Shown here: positions 1,480 through 46,777 of the stretch, piece by piece | Position numbering within the stretch: the stretch's first letter is position 1 | Layout of the letters: each line of letters starts with the position of its first letter | IMG/VR virus record: IMGVR_UViG_2718218171_000003 | Span: 1-47,909 of that record | Length of the DNA stretch: 47,909 nt | DNA from: a virus | Taxonomy: Duplodnaviria > Heunggongvirae > Uroviricota > Caudoviricetes | Strand: one strand, 5' to 3' | Notes under the pieces: model-generated | The model's input: only the letters and a program-made list of their open reading frames with translations | The model's database searches: none | Told to the model about the DNA's origin: nothing | Translations under genes and position numbers: made by a program

Positions 1480-1512
1480 AATAAAACAACGGGCGTGTTA
1501 TACGCCCGTTTC
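1480..1512 (-). terminator. Rho-independent terminator of the displaced icd 3' end (also downstream of iraM on the plus strand)
   Basis: Minus strand: AACGGGCGTATAACACGCCCGTT hairpin followed by GTTTTATTT, starting about 25 nt after the icd stop codon. Confidence 0.6.
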
Positions 1513-1533
1513 AATATTTAACACATGTAGAGA

Positions 1534-1693
1534 TTACATGTTCTTGATGATCGCATCACCAAACTCGCTACATTTCAGCAATTTAGCGCCTTCCATCAGA
1601 CGTTCGAAGTCATAGGTTACGGTCTTGGCGTTGATTGCGCCTTCCATACCTTTAACAATCAGGTCTGCGGCTTCAGTCCAGCCCATATGGCGT
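1534..1693 (-). pseudogene. icdC: Displaced 3'-terminal fragment of isocitrate dehydrogenase gene (icdC-like)
   Basis: Minus-strand translation reads [52 protein letters not shown]-stop, the Icd C-terminus; no icd coding sequence upstream; AT-rich DNA begins at about 1694. Confidence 0.85.
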
Positions 1694-2197
1694 AACAGTA
1701 TATAAAAACAATAAGTTCAAGTCATTGATATTTAATGATAAAAATTATTTTATTGTCTTTTTATTAGCCAAAATCAACTTTATTCAACCGTTTGATTTCA
1801 TTGACGTTCGTTTTTATTTTGGGGAAAGGTTTTATCTACCATTTATATCAAAATTACAAGTCTACATTTTATTAACATCTCAATACATGTGAGGCCTTGC
1901 AGACCTTTGTGAGACCTTATGTGTCTCAGTTTTGTCCCATCTTTTATTACGACTTGCATAGCCAATGAAGATAAACGTGACGACAAACGGCGCAGCAATC
2001 TTCCTTTCTTTCACACTTTCCCAACCCAGCATGTATACTTTTCTGCCATAACTAAAGTGAATGCCTGTTATGAGCAACAAACAGGCATTAGCGCCGCTAG
2101 CATATTAGCTACCATTCGACTGCCATACTTAAGATTGATTTCTTAAGTATAACCCGGTTTCTAATACTACTTATATATTCAGCTCTGAGATTCATTT

Positions 2198-5100
2198 TTA
2201 TCTCGTAAAGCTAGTTTTATGACTTCCTGTTAGCTGACTGTCTTCATAATAAAATGCTCCACTAAACTCCTGTCGACCATAATGATGACTTGATGTGAGT
2301 GAGCCCCCTATAACGCCCTTTTCACCTAATAATGTCCAAACGATTTCAAAACCATTGTCCCTTAACATTGTTAAAAATGGTTCTTTTTTAACAAGTAGAT
2401 GCGGCTTTGAAGCATATACAGCTTCAGCTGCAAAGCAAACCATAGTTCCATTTTCATCATTGAAGCTACCCTCTACTTCCCCACTTTTTAATCCCATCTT
2501 TTCAAAGATTAAGTTACTAGGCTTCAAAAAATTCAAAGTTTCTATTTTTGATTTGTCGAACTCCTCTTCCCACAAATAATTAATCGAAGTGACACTAACA
2601 TCAGCAATCTTAGCTCCAGACTCCCGGTCTGTTACCGAAGTCCAGTCAGATCCACCATAATAATCTGATTTAAAAGACTTAAATGCTTCGGACCAATAGT
2701 ACTCCCTATTAAATAATTGGTATCTATCAGTACATTCCGGCATCCACCTGCCCATAAAGTCTTGAGCTATTGCCCAATATCTAAAATTTTCAAATTCTTC
2801 AACTTTAACGATATAACTTCTGATCTGATACCAAACCTCTTTTCGTGGGTGCCCCCAATCATCGTTTCCAATAATTTTTGGTTCTTTCCATGATGGATAA
2901 CTTTCTAATACTATCCATTCATCACCATTATCATCTTTAACTTCAATAAAAGCATATGAATTAGTTATAGTAGTAGAACTTTTAACCCAGTCTTCATTAG
3001 AGCAAGTCCAATCAAACACTTCATCATTAAGCCACCACATTTCTTTATTGCTTATTTTTTTCGTTCCAGTTTCTTTAAGTAAGATAGTGGGATCTATATC
3101 TCTTACGTAAGGCTCCCATGGCCCTTGGTATGGATTTTCCTTTCGTTCGTCACCATAACCTTCAAAACGAGTAAAATTATCGGCTAGCCTTGCCATGTAT
3201 TCATAATAAGCAATCCATTGGTATTTTTTACCAATCCGTTCTTGGAATGCCTCTCTACGTCCACGTCCAGTTCCTATTTGTTGGTCAAAATTACCATGCT
3301 TCTCCGGATCCCAACCAAGCTCTATAACACGATTGAATATAAATTGTTGAGCTAGTCGAAGATCAAAGTGTTTATCAGTTTCCAGCAGATTATTATTATG
3401 ATCCAGGTATGGCTCTATTTCATTTTCAAACTCACTTAACAGATCGTATGACAATGAATTCTTAAATAATTTCTTGCTCGCCTTTATTTCTTCCTGTGCT
3501 TTTCTACCGACCACACGACCAAATTTAATTCCTTCGCATTTATCATCATAAATGAAAGGATCTGTGGCATCATACAAATCTTTTTGTTGATCAGTTAGTT
3601 TACATTTGAAAGTTTTAAAAACTTGCTTACGGTCAACAGGGGTTTCATTAAACTTGCAACCAGACCAATCAGAATGATTATAATTTGTACCAATAGTATA
3701 TCGTGAAAAGTCACCACCTTCCATAATCGAGCTCCAGAGTTCCCGATAAGGTTCTTTATCATAAAGGGACTCTAGTTCCTCTTTTGAAGGAATCTTGTCA
3801 GGCCAAATGCTGTTGTAGGGTGGTCTAGTCTTGGATAATTCAATGCTTTCAAGTTCCAATCCAAGATGATTAGCAAATTCAATAATCTCTCTAGCATAAT
3901 CTCTAAGTAATATATTTGGATACACATACTCAGAACAAAATACCTTTTGGTAAACAGTTTCGGCTAAATATTTTAGTTCTTTAATATTATCAGTTCGCAA
4001 TGTACAGCCTAATGCAACTGCAAATATTCTTTCCCAAACGTAAGGATCATTTACACCATAAAACTTATCAATTATTTTTCTCAATACAGGAATTCTTGGC
4101 TCGAGTAAACTCACTAAAGCCTTGGTTGAGCAATCTCGAAGTTCTCGGTTACTAGAAGTTAAAAACCAGCATAAACTAGTTGCAACTAGCTCGATTGACT
4201 CATCCGAAACAAAGCTTTTATCTGTTCTGGCCCATGCCCAATCGATTAGATGCCTAAAAGCTGAGTCTTCACTATATTTATATTTAAGTTCTGTAGTCCA
4301 AAACGAATCTCGATTTGCCAAAGAATAATCTTTTAGCCAATCATGCAAGAAATTAGCATTAAAGGGATGGTCAACTAAACCTGAAATAGAGATCACTGCC
4401 TCGAGGAAATGATCAAAACTATCTTTAAATTTAAAAACATGTTCATTGATGAAAGGTCTAATTTTTTCGAAATCAATAGCCTTAATATCTCGCCATATCA
4501 AGCTATCAATAAAGGCTTCTAGTAATTTAAGATTATTGCTAAACTCCGGCAGAAATTCATAAAGCTCTTTTTCATACCTTTCTGGCAATTGAATAGACAG
4601 CGCCTCTACTATTCCCGATTTTATATAAAAATCACATTCATCATGAAAATATTTTTTCAGACGACCATCAGGCTTAAATTCACTTTCGATATTTTCAACA
4701 TCATTTAATAAAAAATTAACAGTTAAATGATCATCAAACCTTTCAAAAGCCACATAAACTACTTCCTCAGTAGAATTATCATCATTTCTCACTATGCCTT
4801 TAGTCAATAATCCTTCGTCAATCAAGGCGCTGAGGAAGGTTTTATCAGCAACATAATCATTAACTACAGATTGAACCACTGAGTGAGCATCTTTAAGTGA
4901 AATACTATTACGACCAATCTCTAATTTGAATTTTATGATTTCATTGAGAGCATCTTTAACAAGAGGAAAACTGGGATCGAATGCATATTTTCTTGGCGAT
5001 GCTAATGATTTATTTACCCCTTCCACTAAAAAGTTAAAAATATTTGAAATCCCATTAAATCCAACAGGCACTTTGGTTAAACCATTTTTCTTAATGCCTT

Positions 5101-6652
5101 CACACAATAACTTAAGAAATAGAGGGTTTTTAAACTCTGGATTAAGGTTAGGTGATGAAGGCCTCTCTATATTGTAATAATCATAAAATAGACTAACCGC
5201 TTCCAACTCAACGCTCTGAAATCCAATATGTTCATGAATTTCAAAATTATTTCGCTCAACATTCTCATGTGAAATTGTTACATTTCTATATGTTGTTCTG
5301 ACTGACATTATCAGACCAAGCCATTCAAAGCCTCTGATTTCATCGACAAAACTGTTAATATTGTCATTCCAGAATTTATTTCCATTACCTTCATTAATAG
5401 CATCAATAAAAACTAAGACTCTTTTTCCTGTTTTTTTGCCATATAAATTCAGTTTTTCTAGGAATTCACGAGAAGTGATTTTAAGCTGTAATCTCTTGAA
5501 GATTTGTGACCATGGAGATTCATCTGAAGTAAGTTGTTGCCCTAGTATGAGTAGAGAAGGATACCCAGAAGCAATTCGATTTTTAATCACATCAGCCAGT
5601 AAATGAGACTTACCAATTCCAGCTTTTCCTTCGAGAAGTAAGAATGGGTTGTTAGCCAACTTCACTGTTGTTGAATTAATGAATGTACGTAATTCATTGC
5701 ACGCATAGTCAAGTTCCCGAAGCATTCGCAGAGTAGATGAATACTTATCACTGTAATGCTTGGTTTCACCTACTTGTTCTGATTTTTCTCGGAGTTCCCA
5801 CAATATTGATTCCGCTCCGCCAATAGCTGTCTGGCAACTAGAAACATAGTTATTAAATTTATTTATAGGGATTTCATCTAATTTAGAAAAATTAATTTCT
5901 TGATATATATCAGAAATTTCTTTTAAGGACTGGTCTATTTCAGATAATTGTGAGGAAATTACATCGCAACTATGTAATTTCTTTCCAGTGACCAGAAAAC
6001 TATCTATATGCGAATAAAATATTTTAGAAAAATTATTAGTTCTACCGAGACCATCAAATATCTCTGCTATTTCTAGCTTTACGTTGAGTTCGGGTGTGTA
6101 TCGGCCTCCCAAGTCAGCTATTGCTTGACTACTTTTCTCATTTAACCAATCATCACTCAAGTGAAAAGTTAGTTTCTCATCTATAGACCGCAAAACAAGT
6201 TTAATTTGAATAAGCTCTTCATTAATATCGAATATTTTTTCTTTATAAGTTTCTTCGATATGTAGCTTTTTTAACTTCGAACAATTATTTATTTTTAACG
6301 ACAACATCCCATAAAAAAGGCTGAGTTGTTGTTGAGTTGGGGGAGTGACGCTTGGATATTCTTTGAACTTGTCTAATAACATCTCTTTGTCAGGGAACTC
6401 TTTAAAAAGGATGTGCTCATTCAACATCTCAAACAATGGTTTAGAATGATAAAATGGAATTGCTCCACTTTCTACTGGATATGTTTCTTCAAACTCAATT
6501 GCCGTCTCTTCAATTAGTTGATATAATCTATCCACATATTTTTCTGTGGGGAATAATGCTTTCTTAATCCAACTATATCCTTCTTGAGAAATGAATTGAT
6601 CAATAAGTTTAGTTGCTACATAAGTTGCCACTGTAATTGATATGGGTTCCAT
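2198..6652 (-). CDS. NACHT/STAND-type P-loop NTPase (NLR-like), 1484 aa; candidate antiphage defence protein
   Basis: Uninterrupted 4455-nt ORF; Walker A GKAGIGKS (aa 342-349, codons 5606-5629), Walker B-like VLVFIDAINE (aa 412-421), sensor-1-like LIMSVRTT (aa 447-454), NPLFLKLL helix; N-terminal about 330 aa and C-terminal about 900 aa without assignable motifs; strongly AT-rich unlike neighbouring phage genes; RBS GGAAGA 8 nt upstream of ATG. Confidence 0.7.
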   Translation of the reverse strand: MEPISITVATYVATKLIDQFISQEGYSWIKKALFPTEKYVDRLYQLIEETAIEFEETYPVESGAIPFYHSKPLFEMLNEHILFKEFPDKEMLLDKFKEYPSVTPPTQQQLSLFYGMLSLKINNCSKLKKLHIEETYKEKIFDINEELIQIKLVLRSIDEKLTFHLSDDWLNEKSSQAIADLGGRYTPELNVKLEIAEIFDGLGRTNNFSKIFYSHIDSFLVTGKKLHSCDVISSQLSEIDQSLKEISDIYQEINFSKLDEIPINKFNNYVSSCQTAIGGAESILWELREKSEQVGETKHYSDKYSSTLRMLRELDYACNELRTFINSTTVKLANNPFLLLEGKAGIGKSHLLADVIKNRIASGYPSLLILGQQLTSDESPWSQIFKRLQLKITSREFLEKLNLYGKKTGKRVLVFIDAINEGNGNKFWNDNINSFVDEIRGFEWLGLIMSVRTTYRNVTISHENVERNNFEIHEHIGFQSVELEAVSLFYDYYNIERPSSPNLNPEFKNPLFLKLLCEGIKKNGLTKVPVGFNGISNIFNFLVEGVNKSLASPRKYAFDPSFPLVKDALNEIIKFKLEIGRNSISLKDAHSVVQSVVNDYVADKTFLSALIDEGLLTKGIVRNDDNSTEEVVYVAFERFDDHLTVNFLLNDVENIESEFKPDGRLKKYFHDECDFYIKSGIVEALSIQLPERYEKELYEFLPEFSNNLKLLEAFIDSLIWRDIKAIDFEKIRPFINEHVFKFKDSFDHFLEAVISISGLVDHPFNANFLHDWLKDYSLANRDSFWTTELKYKYSEDSAFRHLIDWAWARTDKSFVSDESIELVATSLCWFLTSSNRELRDCSTKALVSLLEPRIPVLRKIIDKFYGVNDPYVWERIFAVALGCTLRTDNIKELKYLAETVYQKVFCSEYVYPNILLRDYAREIIEFANHLGLELESIELSKTRPPYNSIWPDKIPSKEELESLYDKEPYRELWSSIMEGGDFSRYTIGTNYNHSDWSGCKFNETPVDRKQVFKTFKCKLTDQQKDLYDATDPFIYDDKCEGIKFGRVVGRKAQEEIKASKKLFKNSLSYDLLSEFENEIEPYLDHNNNLLETDKHFDLRLAQQFIFNRVIELGWDPEKHGNFDQQIGTGRGRREAFQERIGKKYQWIAYYEYMARLADNFTRFEGYGDERKENPYQGPWEPYVRDIDPTILLKETGTKKISNKEMWWLNDEVFDWTCSNEDWVKSSTTITNSYAFIEVKDDNGDEWIVLESYPSWKEPKIIGNDDWGHPRKEVWYQIRSYIVKVEEFENFRYWAIAQDFMGRWMPECTDRYQLFNREYYWSEAFKSFKSDYYGGSDWTSVTDRESGAKIADVSVTSINYLWEEEFDKSKIETLNFLKPSNLIFEKMGLKSGEVEGSFNDENGTMVCFAAEAVYASKPHLLVKKEPFLTMLRDNGFEIVWTLLGEKGVIGGSLTSSHHYGRQEFSGAFYYEDSQLTGSHKTSFTR

Positions 6653-6731
6653 GATTAGCTTCTTCCAACAATTAAATTTTTTACCAAGCGTTTATGCTTT
6701 CCAATAATTATTACATCTCACCGTAAAACAT

Positions 6732-6759
6732 ATTTATATGGTTTTAAACCTATCTGTAA
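6732..6759 (-). promoter_or_regulatory. Candidate sigma70 promoter for the NTPase gene
   Basis: Minus strand -35 TTTACA (6759-6754), 16-nt spacer, -10 TATAAA (6737-6732), about 75 nt upstream of the ATG at 6652. Confidence 0.3.
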
Positions 6760-7183
6760 ATCTTGACACCTTGGCAAGAACCTAATCCTACATTTTAATA
6801 TCAATCTATATAATATCGCCAGCGTCATAATAATCGGGCTTGTCATAGTTAAGTATTCGCCTCCGATATCCCAATGAGATAAGTAAGTCATAAGTGTTAT
6901 AAATGAAAAGGTTACATTTTTCAAAGAGTTATTATGATGGAATATTATTCAAAACGCAATGTGGCTGAAACGAGTCTGAATCTAACATCCGCTCCTAGCA
7001 CATAGCAGCCATAGAGACAGTGGCGTAAAATCATGGAGGATCGGTGGGAGAAGGTGCAAATCCTCCCATACAAAAAATACGTAAAAACGGTAACGGCTGG
7101 AAATCATTCAATACTCGCACTATCGAAAGTTAACCAGCCAGCCGCAGTATCCTATCATGACAAGTTACTGCGGCTTTTTATAT

Positions 7184-7471
7184 TTAACGGATCAACAGCC
7201 AGACCAGCAGACACACCACCACTGGCACAGCAAAATCCATCAGGCTTGCCACATCCCATGCACGAGGATCAAAACCGCCCCACCACGGCATGTTAATCCG
7301 CTTGCCATGCCCGAACATTTCAATCCAGCGATATTCTGCCTGGGTATGTTCACGAGCGATGAAGAACGTACAACCAGCTATCGCTCCGTAAGCCCAGTTC
7401 CCGGTAAAAAGACCAATCAGTAACTGCGCAGCCACAGCACAAAGCGCATGAAGGAAAGGTGTTATATCCAT
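7184..7471 (-). CDS. Small integral membrane protein (about 95 aa), function unknown
   Basis: Hydrophobic segments ALCAVAAQLLIGLF and FAVPVVVCLLVWLLI; ATG at 7471 with GGTAGGA RBS (track ORF extends to a TTG at 7486). Confidence 0.5.
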   Translation of the reverse strand: MDITPFLHALCAVAAQLLIGLFTGNWAYGAIAGCTFFIAREHTQAEYRWIEMFGHGKRINMPWWGGFDPRAWDVASLMDFAVPVVVCLLVWLLIR

Positions 7472-7486
7472 TTTCATCCTACCCAA

Positions 7487-7507
7487 TAAAACGGGGCGCT
7501 CGGCCCC
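7487..7507 (-). terminator. Rho-independent terminator after the tail-fibre gene
   Basis: Minus strand GGGGCCGAGCGCCCC hairpin followed by GTTTTATTGGG. Confidence 0.5.
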
Positions 7508-7513
7508 TTAATA

Positions 7514-8554
7514 TTATTTAGACGCAAGCGCCGCCTCAATTGCAGATAATCTTTGTCTTAATTCTGCGTTTTCTTCTTCCAGTGCTGTTATCCTGTCGTC
7601 TGACTCTCTGGCTACCTGAACAAGCAAACCTGTTACGCCTGAGTAATCAACGGTATAGTATCTTTCTCCCTCTTCTCCATCAGACCCATTGTCCCCGCTC
7701 TTGTACTTTATTGTGCTACCAACTGATTCAGGGATTGCATTAAGTGCCTCTTGCGCAATAACGCCAGCATAAGGCATACCATTAGACTTGAGACGGTATG
7801 TATATCCATTCATTAATCTGATGCGTTCAGTGGCATTGTCAATAACCTGAATATTTTCTTTAAGATCTCTGTCCGACACCTGGTCGAATGATGTTGCCTT
7901 GCATGGCCCGTTTATCTCAAGCTGATAGGTTTTATCTGGGTTCCTTTGTGCATAAAACAAAAAAAGCCCGCCATCATCCCTAATTTCATAAACAACTGGA
8001 CGACTGGAGTTTCCCCATAATAACGTCGATACACCAGAATACGCCGTACCTTGCGTGTTTAGTGTCATGGTCGAACCATGATTAGCGTATTTGATTTGTA
8101 ATGTGTCTGTGTAATCAAATTTAATAAGCGCGTTACTTCCCCGCACACCATACGACATGAGACAGTTCCCCATCTTGAGGTAACCATCACTGCCTGGAAA
8201 AATTAATGTTCCGCCGTAAAGATTACTAAAGTCCCACCAAATACCCTTTTCGCCATCTTTTACGTGTAGTCGCGCCATTGCAGCTTCATCGCCTGCAACA
8301 TTTTTTCGGGTATAAAACTCAGTATATACATCGATTTTATCGGCAGTCTTATGAATTGAACGATGTTTACCACCAAAGACAGTACCAGTTGTCGGCAAAG
8401 TACTATCTTTTTTGGTAGCATCCCAATCACCTAACACCTCGCGTTTACCATCAACATAGGATTTTGTTGCGTAGCTTCCAAGATCAGTTTTTAATTTGCT
8501 AACATCGGATTTTAGCGTTTTGATGTCATCAGGAATTACTGTCGATGTAGCCAT
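7514..8554 (-). CDS. Tail fibre-like protein with C-terminal intramolecular chaperone (peptidase S74-type) domain
   Basis: 346-aa ORF; motif SDRDLKENIQVIDNATERIRLMNGYTYRLK followed by GVIAQEALNAIPE and a terminal coiled coil ITALEEENAELRQRL, typical of self-cleaving chaperone domains of phage fibres. Confidence 0.7.
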   Translation of the reverse strand: MATSTVIPDDIKTLKSDVSKLKTDLGSYATKSYVDGKREVLGDWDATKKDSTLPTTGTVFGGKHRSIHKTADKIDVYTEFYTRKNVAGDEAAMARLHVKDGEKGIWWDFSNLYGGTLIFPGSDGYLKMGNCLMSYGVRGSNALIKFDYTDTLQIKYANHGSTMTLNTQGTAYSGVSTLLWGNSSRPVVYEIRDDGGLFLFYAQRNPDKTYQLEINGPCKATSFDQVSDRDLKENIQVIDNATERIRLMNGYTYRLKSNGMPYAGVIAQEALNAIPESVGSTIKYKSGDNGSDGEEGERYYTVDYSGVTGLLVQVARESDDRITALEEENAELRQRLSAIEAALASK

Positions 8555-8563
8555 TTTTCTTCC

Positions 8564-8845
8564 TCACATCCAGCCACGAAGTTGATGCTCAACAGCAACC
8601 GCGTATTCATCGAATAATGACGATATTTGCGAATCATTAATGATGCGCACGTTTACAAAATATCCGTCTTCCTTAACACATACCGGTTCGCCATCTTCAG
8701 TCAGTTCTCCGGTTTCTTTGTACACGTCACCTATCACGTCAATGAGAATATCATCCTGCATCGACTCGTCATCATAATAGCCAGTGCTATCCATAAAGGC
8801 CGAAAATTCGGCCCTGTCTTCAAATTTGAGTGTTAAATCTTTCAT
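8564..8845 (-). CDS. Acidic 93-aa protein, translationally coupled to stf (TAATG overlap), unknown function
   Basis: ORF start overlaps the stf stop codon by 1 nt; Asp/Glu-rich; no recognisable motif. Confidence 0.5.
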   Translation of the reverse strand: MKDLTLKFEDRAEFSAFMDSTGYYDDESMQDDILIDVIGDVYKETGELTEDGEPVCVKEDGYFVNVRIINDSQISSLFDEYAVAVEHQLRGWM

Positions 8846-11220
8846 TAGATTGACTCCCCCACCTGAGCATCAGTCAATGCCTTGTGCCATATTCTGAAAT
8901 TCCTGACATGACCAAATAAATGACGTAACCCGGCTGTAGTCTGGCCTCCAATACGGATAATTGCGGTGTTCTGAATACAGGACCATGTGGTTTTTGTTTC
9001 GCTGGATATATGCCCGTTACTTACTGAGCACGTAGACTGCTCTGACTTTACACGCATCCCCATAACCATTTTTTCAAGCGATGCGTTTTCGTTTACCCGT
9101 CTGTTAGCTCCTCCAATATCGCAATAAGGAAATCCGTCGTAATCTGTTGAACGACCGAAGCCAAGAATAATAGCCGCTCCGGTTTGATGACCGCCGGTAT
9201 CAAAAACACGTGGCGCTGCATTTGGCGTTTTATACCAGTTCTTATGTACCTCACAAAGAACCGTAAAAGGAAGATTATAAAGATTATTCTTAATTGGAAC
9301 TGTAACTATATCGCTTGCGCGGGTCGCCGCCGTCGCTCCTGATATAATAAAAGATGATACACAAGGCCCATCTTCTACTTGTGGGGTGGCCAGATAAATA
9401 TAGTCACCAGATACGGTTGCCCCGCTCTGCTTAGGAGAATACTGTATCTGAGAGCCTATTTTTAACTCCCCATCAATTGCCTGAATTGTTGCCTCTGCAA
9501 AAATCCATCCGGTAGCTTCGTCCTTTCTGACTCTCGCTGTAATCCTTGAGGCAGCACCGCCTGTCATATTAATTTCAAGCGTTTGTGTATCAATATACGC
9601 ATCACCAAGAAAAGTTGTTGCGCTACCGTCATATTTATCAAACCGGATACGCAACCTTACCTGCAGTTCTGTTTTAAAACGACATGAGGTTGTCACGTGT
9701 TTATTATCGCCTGAGACATCAACTGACTTTGTTGCAGCAATTGACGCCATATTAATGGCTGAGGTTTGCCCAATCAGAGAATCGTTGCAGACAAACTTTC
9801 CATAGGTAAAACCAAAATTATCCGTCCCTGTTTCGGGCACATCCATATTTGACGATCGCCCCCAACTGGCAGGGCTTTCCGAATTGAGCATGTAGTTTGT
9901 TCTTTGCCCCTCAATAAGCAGGCCATCACGTTCAAATCGTGGCTCGTCAATGGCAGCCTCTGTCAGCACACCAGATTTGTTAATATAGGTTGCTTTCGAT
10001 GCACGTTTAAACTTAACAATCTTGTCGCCAGGCATCGTTATTTCATCGTCACCAATAACAATTTTTTTATATGATGGCGAAAAGCCCGTAATCATATCCA
10101 GCGAATCGTTAAATGGTATCCACACATCAGGCAGCGGCTGTAAGACATATTTATACGGCTCCGCAGCCTGGCTTGCGTACTCTCTGGCTGCATCTTCGCT
10201 TGCTTTAGCTGCCGTCTGGCTTGCTGCCGATGCTTTCGCTGAGTTCGCAGCCGCTGTTTCGCTCACCTTTGCGTTGGTTTCACTGGTTTTTGCTGCTTTT
10301 TGACTGTTAGCTGATGCAGTGGCAGAAGCAGCCGCCGCGCTTGCAGAACTGGCTGCGGCACTCTCGCTTTGGGCCGCTGCATCCTGACTGCTTTTCGCCG
10401 CAGTTTCACTGGCTTTGGCATTCGTTTCGCTGGTCTTCGCTGCCGTCTGGCTGGACTTTGCGTTAGTTTCACTCGTCTTCGCAGCTTTCTGGCTGTTAGC
10501 CGCAGCAGTTGCTGATCCAGCTGCTGAAGTCGCAGAACCGGCTGCCGCGCTCTCGCTTTGGGCTGCTGCAACCTGGCTGTTTTTTGCCGCAGTTTCACTG
10601 GCTTTGGCATTCGTTTCGCTGGTTTTCGCTGCCGTCTGGCTGGACTTTGCGTTGGTTTCGCTCGTCTTTGCGGCTGTCTCGCTATTTTTCGCGTTGGTTT
10701 CTGATTTTTTGGCTGCTGTCGCGGAGTTTTCTGATGCAGTCTGTGAGGTCGCTGCCGTCTGTGCACTATTAGCTGCATTCGTTTCTGAGGTTTTCGCCGC
10801 GTTCTTCGATGATGCCGCTGCAGTTTCGGATTTCTTTGCCGCCGCTGCGCTCTGAGAGGCGGCTTCGGCGTTGCGTGCCACTTCTTCCACCATTGCCTCA
10901 AAACGACGCAATGCCTCCGGCATGACATCATCTTCCGTCATGGCACCGAGAAAATCATTCAGCGTACCTGGTCTGGAGCCTTCATAGACGGTAATGGTCC
11001 CGGCATGTGAAGGCGGAAAACCTTCAACCAGCAGGATGACGCTGTACTGGCCATGCTCAACATCCATGCTGTAACGCCCGGCTTCATCCGGATTTTCAGA
11101 GGCCACCGTGTTCACCAGTACCGTGGTGCTGTTACGCTTTGCCTTCAGTTGAATAGTGCAGTTCTGTATTGGTTTTCCCGCACCATCTTTCAGCACACCT
11201 GAGATTTTTACTGCTGCCAT
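8845..11220 (-). CDS. stf: Side tail fibre protein (Stf-like), 791 aa, lambda-like N-terminus with a repetitive shaft and a distinct C-terminal domain
   Basis: N-terminus MAVKISGVLKDG...GFPPSHAGTITVYE matches lambda Stf; ATG at 11220 with GGAG RBS; Ala/Ser/Thr/Lys-rich repeats; C-terminus ends GHVRNFRIWHKALTDAQVGE (lectin/LamG-like signature, inferred). Confidence 0.85.
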   Translation of the reverse strand: MAAVKISGVLKDGAGKPIQNCTIQLKAKRNSTTVLVNTVASENPDEAGRYSMDVEHGQYSVILLVEGFPPSHAGTITVYEGSRPGTLNDFLGAMTEDDVMPEALRRFEAMVEEVARNAEAASQSAAAAKKSETAAASSKNAAKTSETNAANSAQTAATSQTASENSATAAKKSETNAKNSETAAKTSETNAKSSQTAAKTSETNAKASETAAKNSQVAAAQSESAAAGSATSAAGSATAAANSQKAAKTSETNAKSSQTAAKTSETNAKASETAAKSSQDAAAQSESAAASSASAAAASATASANSQKAAKTSETNAKVSETAAANSAKASAASQTAAKASEDAAREYASQAAEPYKYVLQPLPDVWIPFNDSLDMITGFSPSYKKIVIGDDEITMPGDKIVKFKRASKATYINKSGVLTEAAIDEPRFERDGLLIEGQRTNYMLNSESPASWGRSSNMDVPETGTDNFGFTYGKFVCNDSLIGQTSAINMASIAATKSVDVSGDNKHVTTSCRFKTELQVRLRIRFDKYDGSATTFLGDAYIDTQTLEINMTGGAASRITARVRKDEATGWIFAEATIQAIDGELKIGSQIQYSPKQSGATVSGDYIYLATPQVEDGPCVSSFIISGATAATRASDIVTVPIKNNLYNLPFTVLCEVHKNWYKTPNAAPRVFDTGGHQTGAAIILGFGRSTDYDGFPYCDIGGANRRVNENASLEKMVMGMRVKSEQSTCSVSNGHISSETKTTWSCIQNTAIIRIGGQTTAGLRHLFGHVRNFRIWHKALTDAQVGESI
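10180..10668. repeat. In-frame tandem repeats inside stf (unit about 189 bp = 63 aa, two full copies plus a partial third)
   Basis: Protein repeats KTSETNAKSSQTAAKTSETNAKASETAAK...ANSQKAA at aa 187-249 and 250-312; near-identical DNA segments about 189 nt apart. Confidence 0.7.
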
Positions 11221-11229
11221 ATCCACTCC

Positions 11230-11258
11230 ACAAAAAAGCCCGCCTGAACCGGCGGGCT
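11230..11258 (-). terminator. Rho-independent terminator between lom and stf
   Basis: Minus strand AGCCCGCC-GGTTCA-GGCGGGCT hairpin followed by TTTTTTGTGG. Confidence 0.55.
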
Positions 11259-11284
11259 GTCATAACACTGTGTTACCTGGCTAA

Positions 11285-11884
11285 TCAGAATTTATAACCG
11301 ACACCCACGATGAAACCGTCAGTGCGCCAGTCACCACTGCCGGAGCCTTCATAAGCAATATCAATGGCCACGGATTCGGTCGGGTTAAACTGCACGCCAG
11401 CCCCCCACGCCAGAGACGTGTTGCTGTGGCGACCGTCATCACTTCCAGTCAGCACATCGTGCGTTTTCCCCTTGCTGTCAGTTACGCGGAGATAATCCCC
11501 GGAGAACGTTGAAACACGGCTGTAAGCCACACCTGCCATCGCATAAGCACTGAACCATTCATTCACGCGTACAGACGGCCCCGCCATCATGCTGAACCAG
11601 CGGTTACGCACTGAATCTTCATGCCAGCGGGTATCGCTGTAATGCGTTTTTTGCTCATCTTTGGCATTGGCATAACTGAATGACGTCACCAGCCCCAGCG
11701 TGTCCGTAAATTCATAACGGTATTTCACGTTAATGCCCTTCAGGTCATCGTTGCCGGGCATATCAGTATGGGTCTGAAGATACCCGGCGCTTAGTGTGGA
11801 CTGATGCTCTGCTGCGCTCGCTGGCGTACCAGCAGCAACCAGCCAGACTACTGCGGACAGAATAACAGCACATAATTTACGCAT
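11285..11884 (-). CDS. lom: Outer membrane protein Lom (Ail/Lom family)
   Basis: 199-aa ORF with signal peptide and beta-barrel-type sequence ending GFIVGVGYKF; position after J as in lambda. Confidence 0.9.
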   Translation of the reverse strand: MRKLCAVILSAVVWLVAAGTPASAAEHQSTLSAGYLQTHTDMPGNDDLKGINVKYRYEFTDTLGLVTSFSYANAKDEQKTHYSDTRWHEDSVRNRWFSMMAGPSVRVNEWFSAYAMAGVAYSRVSTFSGDYLRVTDSKGKTHDVLTGSDDGRHSNTSLAWGAGVQFNPTESVAIDIAYEGSGSGDWRTDGFIVGVGYKF

Positions 11885-11951
11885 AATTACCTCTCGCTTT
11901 TCTGCAATAAAAAAGGCGTCATTTCTGACGCCCGTATTGGGGTTATAAAAT

Positions 11952-14900
11952 TCAGCTGATACTGATGCCTGCGGTGGCTTTCTTCATCACCACAACCAGC
12001 AAATCGCTGATACTTGCTGTGGGATACCAGTCATTTACCAGCCATGCTGACACCGAAAACTCCAGCGTCATGTGACCGTGACCGGCAGGCATATCAATAA
12101 CGCCACTGTAAATCAGCGTATTATCCAGCGCGGTACGGTTATAAATTTCAGCACCGTTTTTCCGCACTATCAGACGGCATGAGGAGTAAATATCAGTATG
12201 CTCTCTCTCATGTTTAGCGCCGCTGAATGCCACCGCCGGAATAACAATCTGCCGGTCAAACGGCTGATCGTCATAAATCCTGACGGTAATGGTCCCTGAT
12301 GGCCACCGTTCCGGTGCACGGGAGTCCCGGGGGAAAGCTTTGCCCACTGTTTTAACGAGATCGCCTTCAATCTGGTTCGCGGACAGTTTTCCCAGAACCC
12401 GGCAGTTCTCGTTAATCGTGACGTTGTTGAGCGTCCCGGAGTTCGCATTCACGTTACCGCTGATATCGGCATTTTTCGCCGTCAGCCGCCCGTCCGGTGT
12501 CAGGGAAAATGCCGGAGGATTACCGCCGCTGGTAATGGTGGGAGCCGTCAGATATTTCAGGAACACTTCGTTCATGAATATCTGATCGCCCTGCCCAACA
12601 AACATCGGCTTTGTGTTGCCATTCGCAGGATTAATCATCGCAATCCTGTCTGCCGCCAGCAGCACCTGACTCTGCATGCCGTCAGGGGTGTTTTCAATAC
12701 CGGCACCAATACCCGCGATATAAAGGCGTCCGTCCTGCATCTGCTGCAGCTTCACAGCCCACATGCTGTTCAGGTTATTATTTGTATCAACCTGAACCTT
12801 CTGTATCTGCTGGATCGCTGCACTCTGGTCTTCCAGTTTCTTATTGACGGTCTGCGTGATTTCATTACTGACATCCGTGATGGACGTTCTGATTTCCGCC
12901 AGGTCAGGCGCAAGCTGACCGTTATCAATCTGCGTCCACAACTCCTGAGCCAGATGGGTTTTCCCTATCTCTCCTTTGAAAAAATCCAGATAGCCGGATG
13001 CATCATCACTCGGCTGGCCAACAGCCTCCACGAATGCCGATTTGCCAACGGTGTTCACACTGCGGATGTAAAAATAATAATCATGGCCCGGCTTGATATT
13101 GATACTGGCAGCTATCCAGTACAGCGCCGTGCCAAGATAGCGGGCTGTGGTTTCAACCTGCCTGATATCCGCAATCCGCTTTTCCGAGAACCAGAACTCA
13201 AACTGTACCGTCGGATCATAAACGGCAAGATACGGCGTGGCGGTTATCTGAAAATAGCCCGGCGTCAGCTCAATCCGCGACGGCGCTGCCGGTGCGGCAA
13301 TCCGGAACGATACCGATGCCGGATCGCCCTGCTGCCCCCAGGCATTTGCCGCCCGGACTGTCAGCCTGTAGTTTCCCAGCGCCAGTTGCGTGAAGCGGTA
13401 TGTGGTTTCCGTCGTCCTGGCCGTGCTGACCAGCCGCTCACTGCCGTCATCCGCTGCCACGGTCAGACGAAGCATAAAGCTCACGCCCTTCACCACCTTC
13501 GGCGTGTCCCATCGCGCCAGCACCTGATATTCCCCGCTGTCTGCGGTGACTTCGGCGGTCAGGTGCTGCACCGCTGGCGGCGTGACACCATTCACCGTGC
13601 CGCTCTGGTCGCCGTCAAAGTGCGCCCCGTTATCCACGATGGCCTCTTTCTCCGGCACATGCTGCACGGCGGTGATGGCATACGTGCCGTCGTCGTTCTC
13701 ACGGATACTCACGCAGCGGAACAGTCGCTGGCGCAGCGTCGGCAGCTTCAGCCCCCATACGCTGTATTCAGCAACACCGCCAGGAACACGGCTCACTTTT
13801 ACCTTCACGCCGTCGGTGACGGACTGAACCTCCACGCTGACCGGATTCCCCTGTCCGTCAACCAGGCTTATCAGCGTGATGCCGGAGGATGGCAGCGTGA
13901 TTTCACGGTCGAGCGTCAGCGTCCGCGTCTGGCTGTTCACCGCCAGCACGCGCCCGCCGATGCTGATACCCGCATAGTCATCATCACAGATTTCAATGAC
14001 ATCGCCCGGTACATGGCGAAGCCCTTCGGCACCCACGCTGAAGTCCACGGTCTGCGTTTCCAGCAGCTCCGTTTTAATCAGCCACAGCCCGGCGCGGTGT
14101 GCCTGCCCCCGGCTGGTACAGCCAAAGGCATCCATCTTCGTGACGTTACGACCGTAACGGGCAATGGCCTGCGTATCTTCAACAAGCTCTGTCGCCGTCT
14201 CCCAGCCGTTATCCGGGTCAATCCAGTTCACCTCAACGGCATTATGGCGGTCCTTCAGGGCGCTGAAGCTGTAGCGGAACGGCGCGCCATCATCCGGCAT
14301 CACCACATTACTGCGGTTATAGGTCCACACCTTATCCGACGGTCGGTCCTGCACGAACGTCAGCGTCTGCCCGTTCCATACCGGCATACAGCGCATCGCC
14401 GAGCAGAAATCACTGAGCACATCCCACGCCTTGCGCTGTGTGGTCAGGTACGCATTACAGGTGATGCGCGGCTCCGTGCCACCAAAGCCATCCGGCACCG
14501 ACTGGTCGCAATACTGGCCGATGACATACAGCGCCCATTTGTCCACATCCACCGCACCAAGACGTTTCCCCATGCCGTAGCGCGGATGGGTCAGCATATC
14601 CCACAGACACCAGGCCATGTTGTTGCTGTATGCCGGTTTAAACGTTCCGTCCCAGATACCGCTGTATTGCCGCGTCTGCGGGTTATAGTTCGACGGCACC
14701 TGCAGAATACGCCCGCGCAGATGATAATTACGGCTCACCTGCTGGCTGCCGAACTGCTCCGAATCCACCTGTACGCCGACCAGTGCCGTGTTCGGGTAGC
14801 ACTGTTTCACATCGATGATTTCGGTGTATGACGACCAGAGCGTTTTGTTCTGCAGCTGGTCTGTGGTGCTGTCCGGCGTCATCCTGCGCATCCGGATATT

Positions 14901-15431
14901 AAACGGGCGCGGCGGCAGGTTATCCACCACCACCGAGGCCAGATACTGCGAGGTGGTTTTGCCTTTAATGGTGATATCTTTTTCCGTCACCCAGCCACCG
15001 TTACGCTGTATCTGAACCAGCAGACGGACTTCCGACGGATTCCGGTCCCCCTTTGAGGTGGTTTCCACCAGTGCCTGCACACCGAAGGTAAAGCGCAGTC
15101 GGTCGATGTTTGCCGACGTGATGGTGCGGGTGATCGGCGTGTCGTATTTCACTTCCGTACCCAGCACCGTCTCGGAGCCGGAGGATTCAAATCCCTCCGG
15201 CGGAGTCTGCTCCTGCTCACCAGCCCGGAACACCACCGTGACACCGGCGATGTTGGTATTCCCCTCACTGTCCAGCACCGGCGTACTGTTCAGCAGCACG
15301 CTTTTTAATCCATCCACCGGACCTTCAATCGGCCCTTCACTGATGGCATCAATCACACTCAGCAACTGCGTGGATTTCAGGTTGTCCTTCGCTTCGCGCG
15401 GGGTATGCCCCTTACTGCTGCCTTTACCCAT
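11952..15431 (-). CDS. J: Tail tip host-specificity protein J (1159-aa variant)
   Basis: N-terminus [54 protein letters not shown] as in lambda J; position and size. Confidence 0.95.
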
Positions 15432-26492: not shown

Positions 26493-30173
<3,681 letters not shown>

Positions 30174-30199
<26 letters not shown>

Positions 30200-35572: not shown

Positions 35573-36091
35573 TTACCACAAGTGGCCCTTCGTTTGGAAG
35601 AGTAACATCTGTAAAAGGCCGTTTGCTGCCTTGAAATTCTCATATTGGTCGGTGAAGTGAAATTTCCATTTTTCACCATGGAATAAGTTGTTTCTAAGGC
35701 AGTGCAAAACCTTTAAGCAAAGACTCAACATCTGTTTTTCATCAGGCTTCGGGTTTTCCATCAATTCAATCATTCGAGACTTGGTATCACTCCGAGCGTA
35801 ATCATTTGGAAATAGTACATGAAATCGGTGATTGACCCTTCCTGATTCCAAATATCGTTTAGTATAGTAACTATACACTTTTCTTACTAAATCCTGATCG
35901 ATACTCCCTGAAGTCAAAAGCCAATCGGCAACATTGCCTGTTTTTGCAACACTTGTCCCTTTGTGCGACCATTTACTTTCCCCGAATGCAAATAACAACG
36001 TGAAAAGGTAAATATTATCCCATTCTTCACGCTTTAGATCTCTTCCGCCATCGGTCAAACTTATCAAAACTTCTTCAAATTTTTGTTGCAT
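35573..36091 (-). CDS. HEPN-motif protein (R-N-x3-H near C-terminus); putative RNase-type toxin or abortive-infection moron
   Basis: 172 aa from ATG at 36091 with GAGG RBS; motif LHCLRNNLFHGEKW; AT-rich coding sequence. Confidence 0.45.
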   Translation of the reverse strand: MQQKFEEVLISLTDGGRDLKREEWDNIYLFTLLFAFGESKWSHKGTSVAKTGNVADWLLTSGSIDQDLVRKVYSYYTKRYLESGRVNHRFHVLFPNDYARSDTKSRMIELMENPKPDEKQMLSLCLKVLHCLRNNLFHGEKWKFHFTDQYENFKAANGLLQMLLFQTKGHLW

Positions 36092-36449
36092 GCCCACCTC
36101 AGTTACCCATTAATCTTTGATGATCTGGTTTGCCATTTCCGTATATTGAGAATCACTGGAATGAGGCAATTTCAAACTCTCCCCCCGATAGTGCCGCAAC
36201 CGTTCAAGGAAGTAATTACGCAGTTGCTCGGACTGCTAACGTATCACCACCTCGGCACCAGCATGTTCAGCCGCTTTTTGTACGCTACTCCGTAAGCTGC
36301 AAAGTATAGGTATACATTAACCTTGTGTCATTCTTCCTGCGACTCTGCTGCAACGATTCCAGCAGTTATTGCTGCCCATGCCTATGTCATCAAGTTATCC
36401 CACTCTCGAAACCGCATAATACTAAAAAAACACACGCATTCTGTTTGTC

Positions 36450-36875
36450 TTATTTTTTGCCAATGCGGAACGTAGTTGTATTTTTGCCTTCATTGCGTTG
36501 CAATATGTTAAATTTATTTAAGAGTTTAATCATGCCCGAATTTTTGTTGACTACCACAAACTCAATCAATGGAATTTTACCAAGCAATAGATTCATCACG
36601 TTAAACCCTATCGATTTCCCTTGCATTCTGGGGGCCAAATGTATTTCATGTAAAAAAATGTACACTTCGCGTGGAAAATCAAAACCTAGATTTTTATACT
36701 CAACCTCAACAAACCCAACAATATTTCCATTACTTTTGATAAAATAGACATTATCAATACTCGACAATGAGTATATTTTTGAACTCCACTTGTAATTTTG
36801 CCGATAAGAATTCACAGCATTTATTTTCTGAACATCAGGTAGATTACAATGTGAAAAAGGAACAATGCTTGCCAT
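36450..36875 (-). CDS. GNAT-family N-acetyltransferase
   Basis: 141-aa ORF with acetyl-CoA binding motif HEIHLAPRMQGKSIGFNVMNLLL; AT-rich. Confidence 0.7.
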   Translation of the reverse strand: MASIVPFSHCNLPDVQKINAVNSYRQNYKWSSKIYSLSSIDNVYFIKSNGNIVGFVEVEYKNLGFDFPREVYIFLHEIHLAPRMQGKSIGFNVMNLLLGKIPLIEFVVVNKNSGMIKLLNKFNILQRNEGKNTTTFRIGKK

Positions 36876-36877
36876 TT

Positions 36878-37054
36878 TTACCCTACCATTAAAGAACTTA
36901 CAATGAGTTCATCCGGACCTATAACAATCAGAAAAATCATAACATTTAAGAATAAATTGACGAATAACAAATTAATAGTTCTATTAAATTTGCTACTGCA
37001 AGATGGCATATCACGAACCTGATTGACCAGGTCGCTAATTTCATGATCTTTCAT
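36878..37054 (-). CDS. 58-aa peptide with C-terminal hydrophobic segment, 2 nt upstream of the GNAT gene
   Basis: Translated by hand: MKDHEISDLVNQVRDMPSCSSKFNRTINLLFVNLFLNVMIFLIVIGPDELIVSSLMVG; GAGG RBS; a possible 24-codon ORF with AGGAG RBS precedes it; below the ORF-track cutoff. Confidence 0.35.
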   Translation of the reverse strand: MKDHEISDLVNQVRDMPSCSSKFNRTINLLFVNLFLNVMIFLIVIGPDELIVSSLMVG

Positions 37055-46540: not shown

Positions 46541-46777
46541 ATGTCTCGACTAATCACTTTACAGGACTGGGCTAAAGAAGAATTTGGGGACTTAGCACCA
46601 AGTGAGCGAGTTCTGAAAAAATACGCGCAAGGGAAAATGATGGCCCCACCCGCTATAAAAGTTGGTCGCTACTGGATGATTGACCGAAATTCCCGTTTTG
46701 TAGGAACGCTTGCAGAACCGCAACTCCCAATAAACGCAAACCCAAAACTCCAACGGATAATCGCTGATGGCTGCTAG
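46541..46777 (+). CDS. xis: Excisionase (Xis)
   Basis: 78-aa ORF directly upstream of and overlapping int; LTLQDWAKEE...PPAIKVGRYWMIDRNSRF resembles the lambda Xis fold signature; GAGGAGG RBS. Confidence 0.75.
   Translation: MSRLITLQDWAKEEFGDLAPSERVLKKYAQGKMMAPPAIKVGRYWMIDRNSRFVGTLAEPQLPINANPKLQRIIADGC

Follow-up and report, generated by a model that had tools for sequence, protein, structure and literature searches.

An Escherichia coli Avs2 allele carried as a single-gene cargo cassette by a lambda-like prophage

The locus and its setting

The window analysed here, a stretch of viral DNA of 47,909 nucleotides (IMG/VR record IMGVR_UViG_2718218171_000003), carries on its minus strand a coding sequence of 1484 aa plus stop (2198..6652), which the ORF list, its translation, profile searches and sequence identity mark as avs2, in an allele of the EcAvs2 type. 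It begins with ATG and its translation holds a single, terminal stop, so that the uninterrupted 4.45-kb ORF of the preliminary description stands, as does its contrast between an AT-rich gene and neighbouring tail genes that are not: the GC fraction is 0.343 in avs2, as against 0.514 in the tail-fibre/J block (7147-15431) and 0.573 in the head/tail block. At this base composition roughly 7% of all codons should be stops, and the probability of 1484 successive open ones is estimated at about 1e-49: the ORF is not a chance one. Between the alleles compared, dN/dS lies at 0.1-0.4 in most comparisons, and the gene is therefore under purifying selection. Its divergent N-terminal third combines a dN/dS of 0.2-0.3 with a dS four to five times that of the remaining gene, which points to a stretch acquired by recombination from an older allele that was functional, and not to relaxed selection.

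The gene sits between tail-fibre genes (7514-8554 and 8845-11226) and a displaced 3' end of icd with its downstream sequence (1481..1692, minus strand), recognized by local alignment and marking attR. This alignment, ungapped over 212 nt with 14 mismatches, covers icd nt 1093-1251 and 53 nt downstream, and includes the codons for the final 50 aa of Icd; in the annotation of strain N3 the equivalent stretch is a pseudogene for part of isocitrate dehydrogenase, while in strain GF130 the same integrase adjoins an intact icd. The cassette is thus found 0.5 kb inward of the attR junction in icd, in the cargo slot between tail fibres and attR where it had been placed beforehand, and it also adjoins tail-fibre genes in another prophage lineage. 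We can regard avs2 as AT-rich cargo, complete in itself, that a lambda-like prophage integrated in icd carries at its att-proximal end.

Comparison with an avs2-less phage shows that 2076-6987 replaces other cargo. On the attR side, a phage-side arm or 'landing pad' (1693..2075, no strand assigned) is common to avs2-less phages, the window being 91.5% identical to the avs2-less Lambda_2E9 over 1481-2075; on the upstream side, a second landing pad (6988..7146, likewise without strand) is present in avs2-less phages and in all the avs2-bearing prophages examined, and is 87.4% identical to Lambda_2E9. The first arm holds a small ORF (1880-2080), without a match among PHROGs, annotated in strain 2014EL-1346-6 and hypothetical in other genomes; Lambda_2E9 has a comparable small hypothetical CDS in the homologous stretch, and since the surrounding DNA is common to a phage that lacks avs2, this ORF is no Avs2-specific partner. 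In other genomes the conserved avs2 block ends at 7145-7147, and the block conserved across contexts (1880-7147) consists of avs2 and of non-coding flanks that are also found in avs2-less phages: avs2 is a single-gene system.

Upstream, an AT-rich region of 335 bp (6653..6987, minus strand) travels with the gene and is presumed to contain its native promoter, inferred rather than demonstrated because a sigma-70 consensus scan of its minus strand gave no match. Downstream, 112 nt past the stop codon, the hairpin GCCTGTT-N10-AACAGGC (2063..2086, minus strand), read on the sequence and coinciding with the cassette edge at 2075/2076, is a possible, weakly supported terminator, which a terminator scan did not call because its loop exceeds 8 nt and it lacks a T-run.

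Identity of the protein

The NCBIfam equivalog profile for Avs2 (NF041813, cutoff 1000 bits) matches the protein from aa 178 onwards with 1695 bits, over all profile positions (1-1317 of 1317). All six PADLOC models for Avs2 match it as well, the best with 1761 bits, and no other PADLOC model does. Aligned with EcAvs2 (PDB 9O4E chain A; Evans et al., Nat Commun 2026, PMC13601566), it is collinear over its full length of 1484 aa and 97.91% identical, 31 of the 1484 residues being different. The NCBI entry WP_073461897.1, named Avs2, has the identical sequence, and each of the 86 full-length copies found among 5426 complete E. coli genomes carries the avs2 annotation. The protein of 1484 aa is an allele of E. 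coli Avs2 (AVAST type 2) that had been deposited and named before. The profile searches suggested in the preliminary description have thus led to Avs2, with NTPase matches in Pfam that stay below threshold, and its reading of a single-gene, STAND/NLR-like antiphage system proved right; calling it a candidate did not, as this is an annotated and experimentally characterized defence protein.

Domain organization

The STAND NTPase module (about aa 331-580, with an approximate C-terminal boundary; 4913..5662, minus strand) is delimited by motif positions and by sub-threshold Pfam matches. Walker A, GKAGIGKS (aa 342-349, nt 5606-5629, minus strand), Walker B, VLVFIDAINE (aa 412-421, nt 5390-5419, minus strand), LIMSVRTT (aa 447-454) and NPLFLKLL (aa 509-516) can all be read on the translation, in full agreement with what was first reported. 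Over aa 324-427, Pfam returns nSTAND6, NACHT, NB-ARC and AAA models, all sub-threshold, that of NACHT scoring 14.3 bits where the cutoff is 26.7 and being limited to the 20-aa P-loop. In the earlier label 'NACHT/STAND-like', STAND NTPase is therefore the defensible name, whereas NACHT has no Pfam support. In EcAvs2 this module has an NBD-HD1-WHD organization with an ATP-bound tetramer interface, and the K348A change, which had been suggested here as a control, is already published as abolishing defence (PMC13601566).

The C-terminal 900 residues or so, to which no motif had been assigned, form the sensor region (about aa 581-1484; 2201..4912, minus strand), in which a TPR-like alpha-helical domain precedes a beta-rich C-terminal sensor and which departs from 9O4E at 6 of its 904 residues. 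The reported richness in aromatic residues is real: Trp makes up 3.0% and Tyr 5.2% of aa 585-1484, about twice the values typical of E. coli. The beta-rich sensor of EcAvs2 binds the terminase ATPase domain together with a bridging ATP (PMC13601566). As for the N-terminal region, treated so far as one block of about 330 aa, it has two components: the first 170 aa or so are the effector, and the rest is a segment (5663..6142, minus strand) that the Avs2 profiles cover and that corresponds to the helical extension described in EcAvs2 as contributing to the terminase-binding surface (PMC13601566); this segment holds 9 of the 31 differences from 9O4E.

The effector domain (aa 1 to approximately 170; 6143..6652, minus strand) comprises a hydrophobic leader helix (MEPISITVATYVATKLIDQFIS) and then a helical bundle, and falls outside the NCBIfam profile. 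Searches of Pfam and PADLOC gave no match to it, HeLo-type families being absent even at E values up to 10. An HMM search retrieved 359 cluster representatives; the domain is N-terminal in 150 of the 150 matches listed, and among these it occurs solely at the N-termini of sensor proteins, its fusion partners including Avs2, TGP/PIN, NB-ARC+TPR and nSTAND3. The short matches resemble contig-end fragments. Across 140 homologues, conservation falls almost entirely on hydrophobic or aromatic positions, and no polar residue of catalytic type is conserved. Residues 4-22 form the most hydrophobic 19-aa window of the protein, with a hydropathy (1.09 over 19 aa) under the classical transmembrane threshold. 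All of 135 homologues have a hydrophobic leader (the best 15-aa window has a median hydropathy of 1.46, versus -0.11 in a control segment); an M-[E/D]-P start is found in only 31 of them. AF2 models predict helices with a mean pLDDT of 64-70, falling below 50 in the first 36 residues, and a Foldseek search with the model yielded no significant fold match (best E 0.26, TM about 0.2). These features point to an effector that is probably non-enzymatic, in agreement with what has been published.

Relation to known systems

With EcAvs2 the window protein shares length, collinearity, the Walker motifs, the ten contact or functional residues and an N-terminus beginning with MEPIS; it differs by its 31 substitutions, 21 of them within aa 1-330, by D979G and by its recombinant N-terminal segment. 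The allele of strain E2528-C1, one residue away from 9O4E, also adjoins prophage tail-fibre genes. The STAND core and C-terminal sensor of KpAvs2 from Klebsiella pneumoniae place it in the same family, and it responds to terminase and Ksap1 by abortive infection (Bechon et al., Nat Commun 2024, PMC11564622; PMC13601566); Ksap2 and certain terminase nuclease domains activate it in addition (PMC11564622; PMC13601566). Its N-terminus, however, is an Mrr-type endonuclease that degrades DNA, and its operon includes a radical-SAM protein and a DUF6375 protein, whereas in the window protein the effector is of the rarer, non-nuclease kind and no partner genes accompany it. SeAvs3 and Avs1 have the same effector-STAND-sensor layout and terminase-induced tetramerization, and bind the same terminase-ATPase surface through a shared beta-rich C-terminal sensor, but their TPR domain is another one and their effector is a nuclease; SeAvs3, moreover, binds a folded terminase nuclease domain, without a bridging ATP (PMC13601566).

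More distant likenesses concern the effector. A motif of about 15 N-terminal residues, 'MEPIS', predicted to form a pore-lining helix, is reported to be common to Bab, Bell/Hell and 'Avast2'; its mutation impairs defence in Bab and Avast2 alike, with Avast2 mutants affecting defence against T4 (Ibarlosa et al., bioRxiv 10.1101/2024.11.07.622273; Nat Microbiol 2025). Direct fusions of EcAvs2-type domains to TGP proteins, the class of sensors that includes Agp, also occur. Beyond the leader, nevertheless, no homology with Bab, Bell and HeLo proteins is detected by the Pfam and fold searches; the window effector has about 170 aa where the helical domain of Bab has about 80, and the locus has neither an amyloid motif nor a separate killer gene. 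In plant CC-NLR resistosomes (ZAR1) and in MLKL four-helix-bundle executioners, N-terminal helices are likewise proposed to insert into membranes, the former being oligomerizing NLRs. The likeness is one of logic alone, Pfam and fold searches having found no similarity in sequence or structure, and the ZAR1 resistosome is a pentamer where EcAvs2 is a tetramer.

Alternative readings

One could suppose that the gene encodes some other STAND protein (a bNACHT, Avs1, Avs3 or Avs4, or a STAND regulator of transcription) with no more than a resemblance to Avs2, as the weak and mixed Pfam P-loop matches might suggest; the equivalog match spanning the whole profile, the exclusively Avs2 matches of PADLOC and the 97.9% identity and collinearity with the solved EcAvs2 refute this, and its probability is negligible. 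Decay of the allele, disabled by its mosaic N-terminus and D979G and persisting as prophage baggage, deserves slightly more attention and is still very improbable. Of the 31 substitutions, 21 do lie in aa 1-330, D979G (relative to EcAvs2) lies two residues from D981, a contact of the bridging ATP, no consensus promoter was called upstream, and decay is seen in some avs2 prophages elsewhere, where integrases are truncated and IS66 has inserted. Against this, the long ORF stays open in 34% GC DNA, the N-terminal substitutions bear the mark of an older functional allele, and all ten named functional residues are retained (K348, D981, T1128, R1130, R1132, W1266, E1362, E1364, E1444 and E1462). The ATP-contact interface is also redundant, because in EcAvs2 single alanine changes at these residues leave defence unimpaired; the triple mutant R1132A/D981A/E1364A has reduced defence against T7 and Pal009 (PMC13601566). 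As the ORF is intact, these residues are kept and selection is purifying, we infer that the window allele is active.

A more serious alternative accepts Avs2 but sees the N-terminal domain as an adaptor, clustered N-termini recruiting or activating a host effector or one encoded separately, by analogy with death-fold or effector-associated domains. It would account for the lack of an enzymatic signature and for the fact that the effector is not visible in the cryo-EM of the activated EcAvs2 tetramer, for which 'interacting partners' are one explanation raised by the authors (PMC13601566); in Bab/Agp, a TGP-class sensor indeed activates a separate Bell-domain killer, Bab (10.1101/2024.11.07.622273). 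Yet the cassette has no conserved partner gene, EcAvs2 cloned as a single gene with its native promoter suffices for activity in laboratory E. coli (PMC13601566), and none of the homologues inspected has a glycine/asparagine-rich C-terminal tail of amyloid type. An adaptor is unlikely, at perhaps a quarter of the weight, though its partner might be a host protein that is universally present.

A proposed mode of action

Preferring an Avs2 that carries its own executioner, we may transpose to the window protein what has been established for EcAvs2. There, terminase was the only toxic one among PhiV-1 or ZL19 genes when combined with EcAvs2, its ATPase domain sufficing by itself; size-exclusion chromatography showed oligomerization with T4 terminase and not without it, and the structure, at 2.3 A, is a C4 tetramer with the bridging ATP (PMC13601566). 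The helical extension, TPR domain and beta-rich sensor would accordingly form a pocket binding the large-terminase ATPase domain of the infecting phage, sealed by the bridging ATP; binding would drive ATP-dependent assembly, via the STAND module, of a flat C4 tetramer that brings four N-termini together, and the infected cell would die or stop growing, so that the phage would not propagate. Taken jointly, Avs2 identity, sensing and oligomerization are very probable, a judgement that leaves the effector step aside. For the latter, the N-terminal domain of about 170 aa would be a non-enzymatic executioner, whose hydrophobic leader helix (MEPISITVATYVATK...), freed as the domains cluster, would damage the inner membrane in a Bell/HeLo-type manner; this final killing step is plausible, at somewhat less than an even chance. 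The preliminary description held that the trigger could not be identified from sequence. Homology to EcAvs2, which responds to the large-terminase ATPase domain of phages with a bridging ATP and also to Ksap1 and vs.8 (PMC13601566), makes the trigger of the window protein identifiable.

An allele of a characterised defence protein

The minus-strand open reading frame at 2198-6652, which translates from an ATG start through 1484 codons to a single terminal stop, is an already named and deposited allele of a defence protein, Avs2, that has been characterised both structurally and functionally. The preliminary description had proposed a NACHT/STAND-like antiphage gene lodged in a prophage cargo slot, and on re-reading the translation its coordinates proved exact, for the frame as for the motifs GKAGIGKS (aa 342-349) and VLVFIDAINE (412-421); LIMSVRTT falls at 447-454 and NPLFLKLL at 509-516. 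The profile searches that it had put forward as a check bear out an immune sensor of the STAND type. On NF041813, the NCBIfam equivalog for 'AVAST type 2 anti-phage system protein Avs2', the protein reaches 1695.3 bits, where the cutoff is 1000, and its residues 178-1476 span the entire profile (positions 1-1317 of 1317). In PADLOC all six Avs2 HMMs match, and no other model, the best scoring 1761.7 bits (aa 22-1483). Among PDB sequences a single chain was matched, 9O4E_A, from the cryo-EM entry of EcAvs2; it is also 1484 aa long, and the full-length comparison is collinear, with 31 differences (97.91% identity). The exact sequence is deposited at NCBI as WP_073461897.1, under the name Avs2, and full-length copies at 96-99% DNA identity are found in 86 of 5426 complete E. 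coli genomes, all 86 annotated avs2. The 'NACHT' part of the original label had to be dropped: with the whole protein as query, Pfam NACHT (PF05729) reached 14.3 bits against a gathering cutoff of 26.7 and covered the P-loop only (aa 338-357), and the nSTAND6, NB-ARC and AAA models were equally sub-threshold and limited to the P-loop. We retain 'STAND', for which the support comes from the Avs2 profile together with the structure.

As read from the collinearity with 9O4E and from the motif positions, the protein has the tripartite architecture of Avs2, with an N-terminal effector, a central STAND NTPase bearing Walker A and B motifs, and a sensor made of TPR and beta-rich C-terminal regions, the last 900 aa being rich in Trp (3.0%) and Tyr (5.2%). 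The reading frame has a GC content of 34.3%, against 51.4% in the adjacent tail-fibre/J block and 57.3% in the head/tail block. So long an open frame cannot arise by chance in such AT-rich DNA (we estimate a probability of roughly 1e-49), and dN/dS among avs2 alleles lies between 0.1 and 0.4 in most comparisons.

The terminase trigger of EcAvs2 and the residues involved

The mechanism of EcAvs2 is known from the structure 9O4E, in which the protein is bound to the large terminase of PhiV-1 (Evans et al., Nat Commun 2026, PMC13601566). At 2.3 A it forms a flat C4 tetramer joined via ATP-bound STAND modules; the terminase ATPase is held by the helical extension, the TPR domain and the beta-rich C-terminal sensor, their contact being sealed by a third, 'bridging' ATP. 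The purified protein oligomerises only when terminase is present, and the terminase ATPase domain by itself is enough for activation. Activators comprise a wide range of a panel of 37 terminases, most of them below 10% pairwise identity, as well as Ksap1 and the terminase-like T4 protein vs.8. In the same study a K348A mutation abolished defence against Pal009, T7 and PhiV-1, so that the Walker A control suggested in the preliminary description already exists in published form; the triple mutant R1132A/D981A/E1364A defended substantially less well against T7 and Pal009 (PMC13601566).

The ten residues named in that work, which comprise the Walker A lysine needed for defence (K348) and contacts to terminase and to the bridging ATP (D981, T1128, R1130, R1132, W1266, E1362, E1364, E1444 and E1462), are all kept in the protein of the window, and the sole change close to them is D979G. 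Terminase-triggered toxicity and protection against tailed phages have been shown for EcAvs2, at 97.9% identity, and are predicted for this allele.

A recombinant N-terminal third

The differences from 9O4E are unevenly spread, 21 of the 31 substitutions falling within aa 1-330, the effector and helical-extension third (codons at 5663-6652). The allele of E. coli strain E2528-C1 differs from 9O4E by one residue. Compared with four other E. coli alleles, dS in this third is 0.09-0.13 against about 0.02 in the STAND and sensor parts, that is, 4-5 times higher, and dN/dS is alike in both parts (0.2-0.3). An excess of substitutions at one end of an immune sensor could be read as diversifying selection, which we reject since the synonymous rate rises too and dN/dS stays at 0.2-0.3, or as decay, which is rejected on the similarity of dN/dS in the two parts. 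Because dS rises in parallel while dN/dS is unchanged, the N-terminus is a recombinant segment acquired from a more distant, functional allele. The pattern indicates that recombination swaps N-terminal segments between Avs2 alleles.

What the effector may do

The effector (about aa 1-170) is invisible in the EcAvs2 cryo-EM map, where it was assigned no function (PMC13601566), and most Avs2 proteins carry an Mrr nuclease in place of an N-terminal domain of the EcAvs2 type. Family searches were of little help: with aa 1-175 as query and E values up to 10 admitted, Pfam gave a spurious Erf4 as its sole match and no HeLo-type family, PADLOC had no match on the same segment, and neither Pfam nor PADLOC gave a meaningful match to the helical extension. 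A profile search with the effector gave 359 matches among 1.84 billion cluster representatives, and in all 150 of the matches listed, out of that total, the domain sits at the extreme N-terminus. The partners sampled were Avs2, shorter Avs2-like STANDs, TPR-GreAB-C-PIN (TGP), NB-ARC with TPR, and nSTAND3, in agreement with a published statement that the effector is modular. We also looked for a stand-alone effector with a C-terminal amyloid motif and rejected it; the short matches seem to be pieces from the N-terminus of longer proteins, and a BASS-like tail was seen in none of them.

Conservation among 140 homologues falls almost entirely on hydrophobic or aromatic positions (F67 in 99%, P105 in 98%, F113 in 96%, L43 in 95%, then L127 and I140), and no polar residue exceeds 84% conservation, which argues against an enzyme. 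Two AF2 models, with mean pLDDT of 64 and 70, both show a helical bundle that starts near residue 38; in both, the leader helix at residues 7-21 is unconfident. The protein of the window begins MEPISITVATYVATK, and residues 4-22 form the most hydrophobic 19-aa window of the whole product. A hydrophobic leader is universal among 135 homologues, a literal M-E/D-P start being found in 31 of these. This leader has been described as the 'MEPIS' motif, common to the Bell-domain killer Bab, which moves to the cell periphery and alters membranes, and to fungal Hell domains; mutating the MEPIS region is reported to affect Avast2 defence against T4 (Ibarlosa et al., bioRxiv 10.1101/2024.11.07.622273). 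The hydrophobic N-terminal helix with leader motif that marks the Bell/Hell/HeLo domains is thus present, profile homology was not found, and membership of the effector in the Bell/HeLo family is not established.

Taken together, the best available model, which we hold tentatively and at somewhat less than even confidence, is that of a non-enzymatic, membrane-directed executioner, which tetramerisation would set free. Its main rival, in which the effector would act as an adaptor needing a partner from the host, seems to us unlikely.

Prophage layout

The window opens with ycgX, ymgL and iraM (1-1431). The 212 nt at 1481-1692 are the displaced 3' end of icd and differ from the intact gene at 14 positions, which places the attR junction at 1692/1693; the avs2 stop codon lies 506 bp inside it. 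From there a lambda-like prophage runs to its integrase at the far end (46767-47909), by way of tail fibres, Lom, J, portal, a gpA-type large terminase, Q, a CI-like repressor and recombination genes; in strain GF130 the same integrase adjoins an intact icd.

Other features of the prophage deserve mention in their own right. A minus-strand gene at 7184-7486, placed between the avs2 cassette and the nearest tail-fibre gene, encodes a predicted membrane protein of 100 aa (phrog_1443, no Pfam match), and a GC-rich hairpin comes after it at about 7135-7170. The gene is conserved in strain N3 but does not belong to the mobile avs2 block. In the early-left operon, between exo and xis/int, a plus-strand frame of 222 aa (45074-45742) matches DndB/DGQHR over its C-terminal two thirds only (PF14072, 127-284 of 338; PADLOC DndB). 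Because its GF130 counterpart is 354 aa long, this copy is probably truncated at its 5' end. A second low-GC island (36001-37000, 36.8% GC) lies between the Q/nin region and the replication genes, with a minus-strand frame of 141 aa (36450-36875) weakly matching GNAT acetyltransferases (22.4 bits, cutoff 20.7) and a 174-aa frame without a match. It may be another cargo slot, since related prophages have different cargo there, GF130 for instance an alpha/beta hydrolase and an inverse autotransporter.

The avs2 cassette as mobile cargo

The cargo-slot reading holds as well: between phage flanks shared with Lambda_2E9 (1481-2075 and 6988-7146), a phage with the same type of integrase and without avs2, an AT-rich insert on the prophage side of attR (2076-6987, GC 0.342) replaces 1.19 kb of other cargo. 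Because the slot in Lambda_2E9 is filled differently, the att-adjacent region is a variable cargo hotspot. The equivalent slot in that phage (Escherichia virus Lambda_2E9, locus L006, 3886-5073) is taken up by a hypothetical protein of 256 aa, for which PADLOC gave no match, and after it comes a sitABCD manganese-transporter operon (5424-8731).

The block common to four other avs2 loci corresponds to 1880-7147, and its non-avs2 parts are also present in the avs2-less phage. At 97.6-98.3% identity it stands directly after the tail-fibre-assembly genes in complete-looking 40-kb prophages at tRNA-Thr/proA (thrW/proA), and it recurs in a degraded remnant carrying IS66. Since the thrW/proA prophages differ from the present one in integrase and in terminase (700 aa there), the cassette passes from one prophage lineage to another. 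Its presence in rearranged or eroded prophage DNA of several ETEC-type genomes suggests that the defence gene is kept while parts of the phage decay. The locus of strain 2014EL-1346-6 (L003) shows an IS66 insertion, a truncated integrase, and duplicated pinE and tail-fibre fragments; at locus L004 an IS66-family element (4179-6794) lies on the att side of avs2.

Unlike the KpAvs2 operon and the Avs2-trypsin-MBL system, which have accessory genes, this locus has no conserved ones, as befits the single-gene subtype. A partner among the flanking small reading frames was considered and rejected, as these have no family match and avs2-less phages carry the same flanking DNA. With its native upstream DNA, EcAvs2 is active. 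No sigma-70 consensus was found on the minus strand of 6653-7146, a downstream hairpin at 2063-2086 was not called by the terminator scan, and promoter and terminator scan counts, no higher than in shuffled sequence, gave nothing useful upstream of avs2. Outside E. coli, a 670-aa hypothetical protein annotated in Staphylococcus phage UPMK_1 (L009, MG543995.1, 5013-7025) resembles the sensor half of Avs2 (aa 635-1428) at 31% identity. We reject it as a phage-borne 'decoy' of the sensor, as the genes around it in this partial record (sigS, acetyl-CoA synthetase, the ars operon, transposases) come from the S. aureus chromosome.

A terminase sensor among terminases

It is worth emphasizing that this sensor of terminases co-resides with intact large-terminase genes of two types. 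That of the window (28274-30199, minus strand) encodes a lambda gpA-type protein of 641 aa that shares 99% identity with its counterparts in isolated lambdoid phages, and the thrW/proA prophages encode the 700-aa type (L007, 20679-22781; L008, 21080-23182). In the literature searched, we found no account of EcAvs2 facing lambda-type terminases or its own prophage, nor of how prophage induction is tolerated beside it. The avs2-bearing prophages might possess some form of self-tolerance, be it an anti-Avs2 factor, a shut-off of avs2 in lytic growth, or terminases whose surfaces the sensor fails to recognise; we regard this as rather unlikely. Conversely, Avs2 could abort the induction of its own prophage, effectively locking it in; the absence of avs2 from all 50,697 deposited phage genomes is compatible with this reading, though it falls far short of proving it.

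Significance

The gene itself brings no biological novelty, its RefSeq name, trigger and structure being known already. We can rather understand the locus as a positive control, where a reading of raw sequence recognised both a STAND-type sensor and its position as prophage cargo. For the family, the survey of homologues favours killing that would be non-enzymatic and dependent on the leader helix for the EcAvs2-type effector, a module that is found on Avs2, TGP/PIN, NB-ARC and nSTAND3 sensors alike. Were self-tolerance to be real, the prophages that bear avs2 would constitute a natural source of Avs2 inhibitors, or of the rules by which a terminase escapes.
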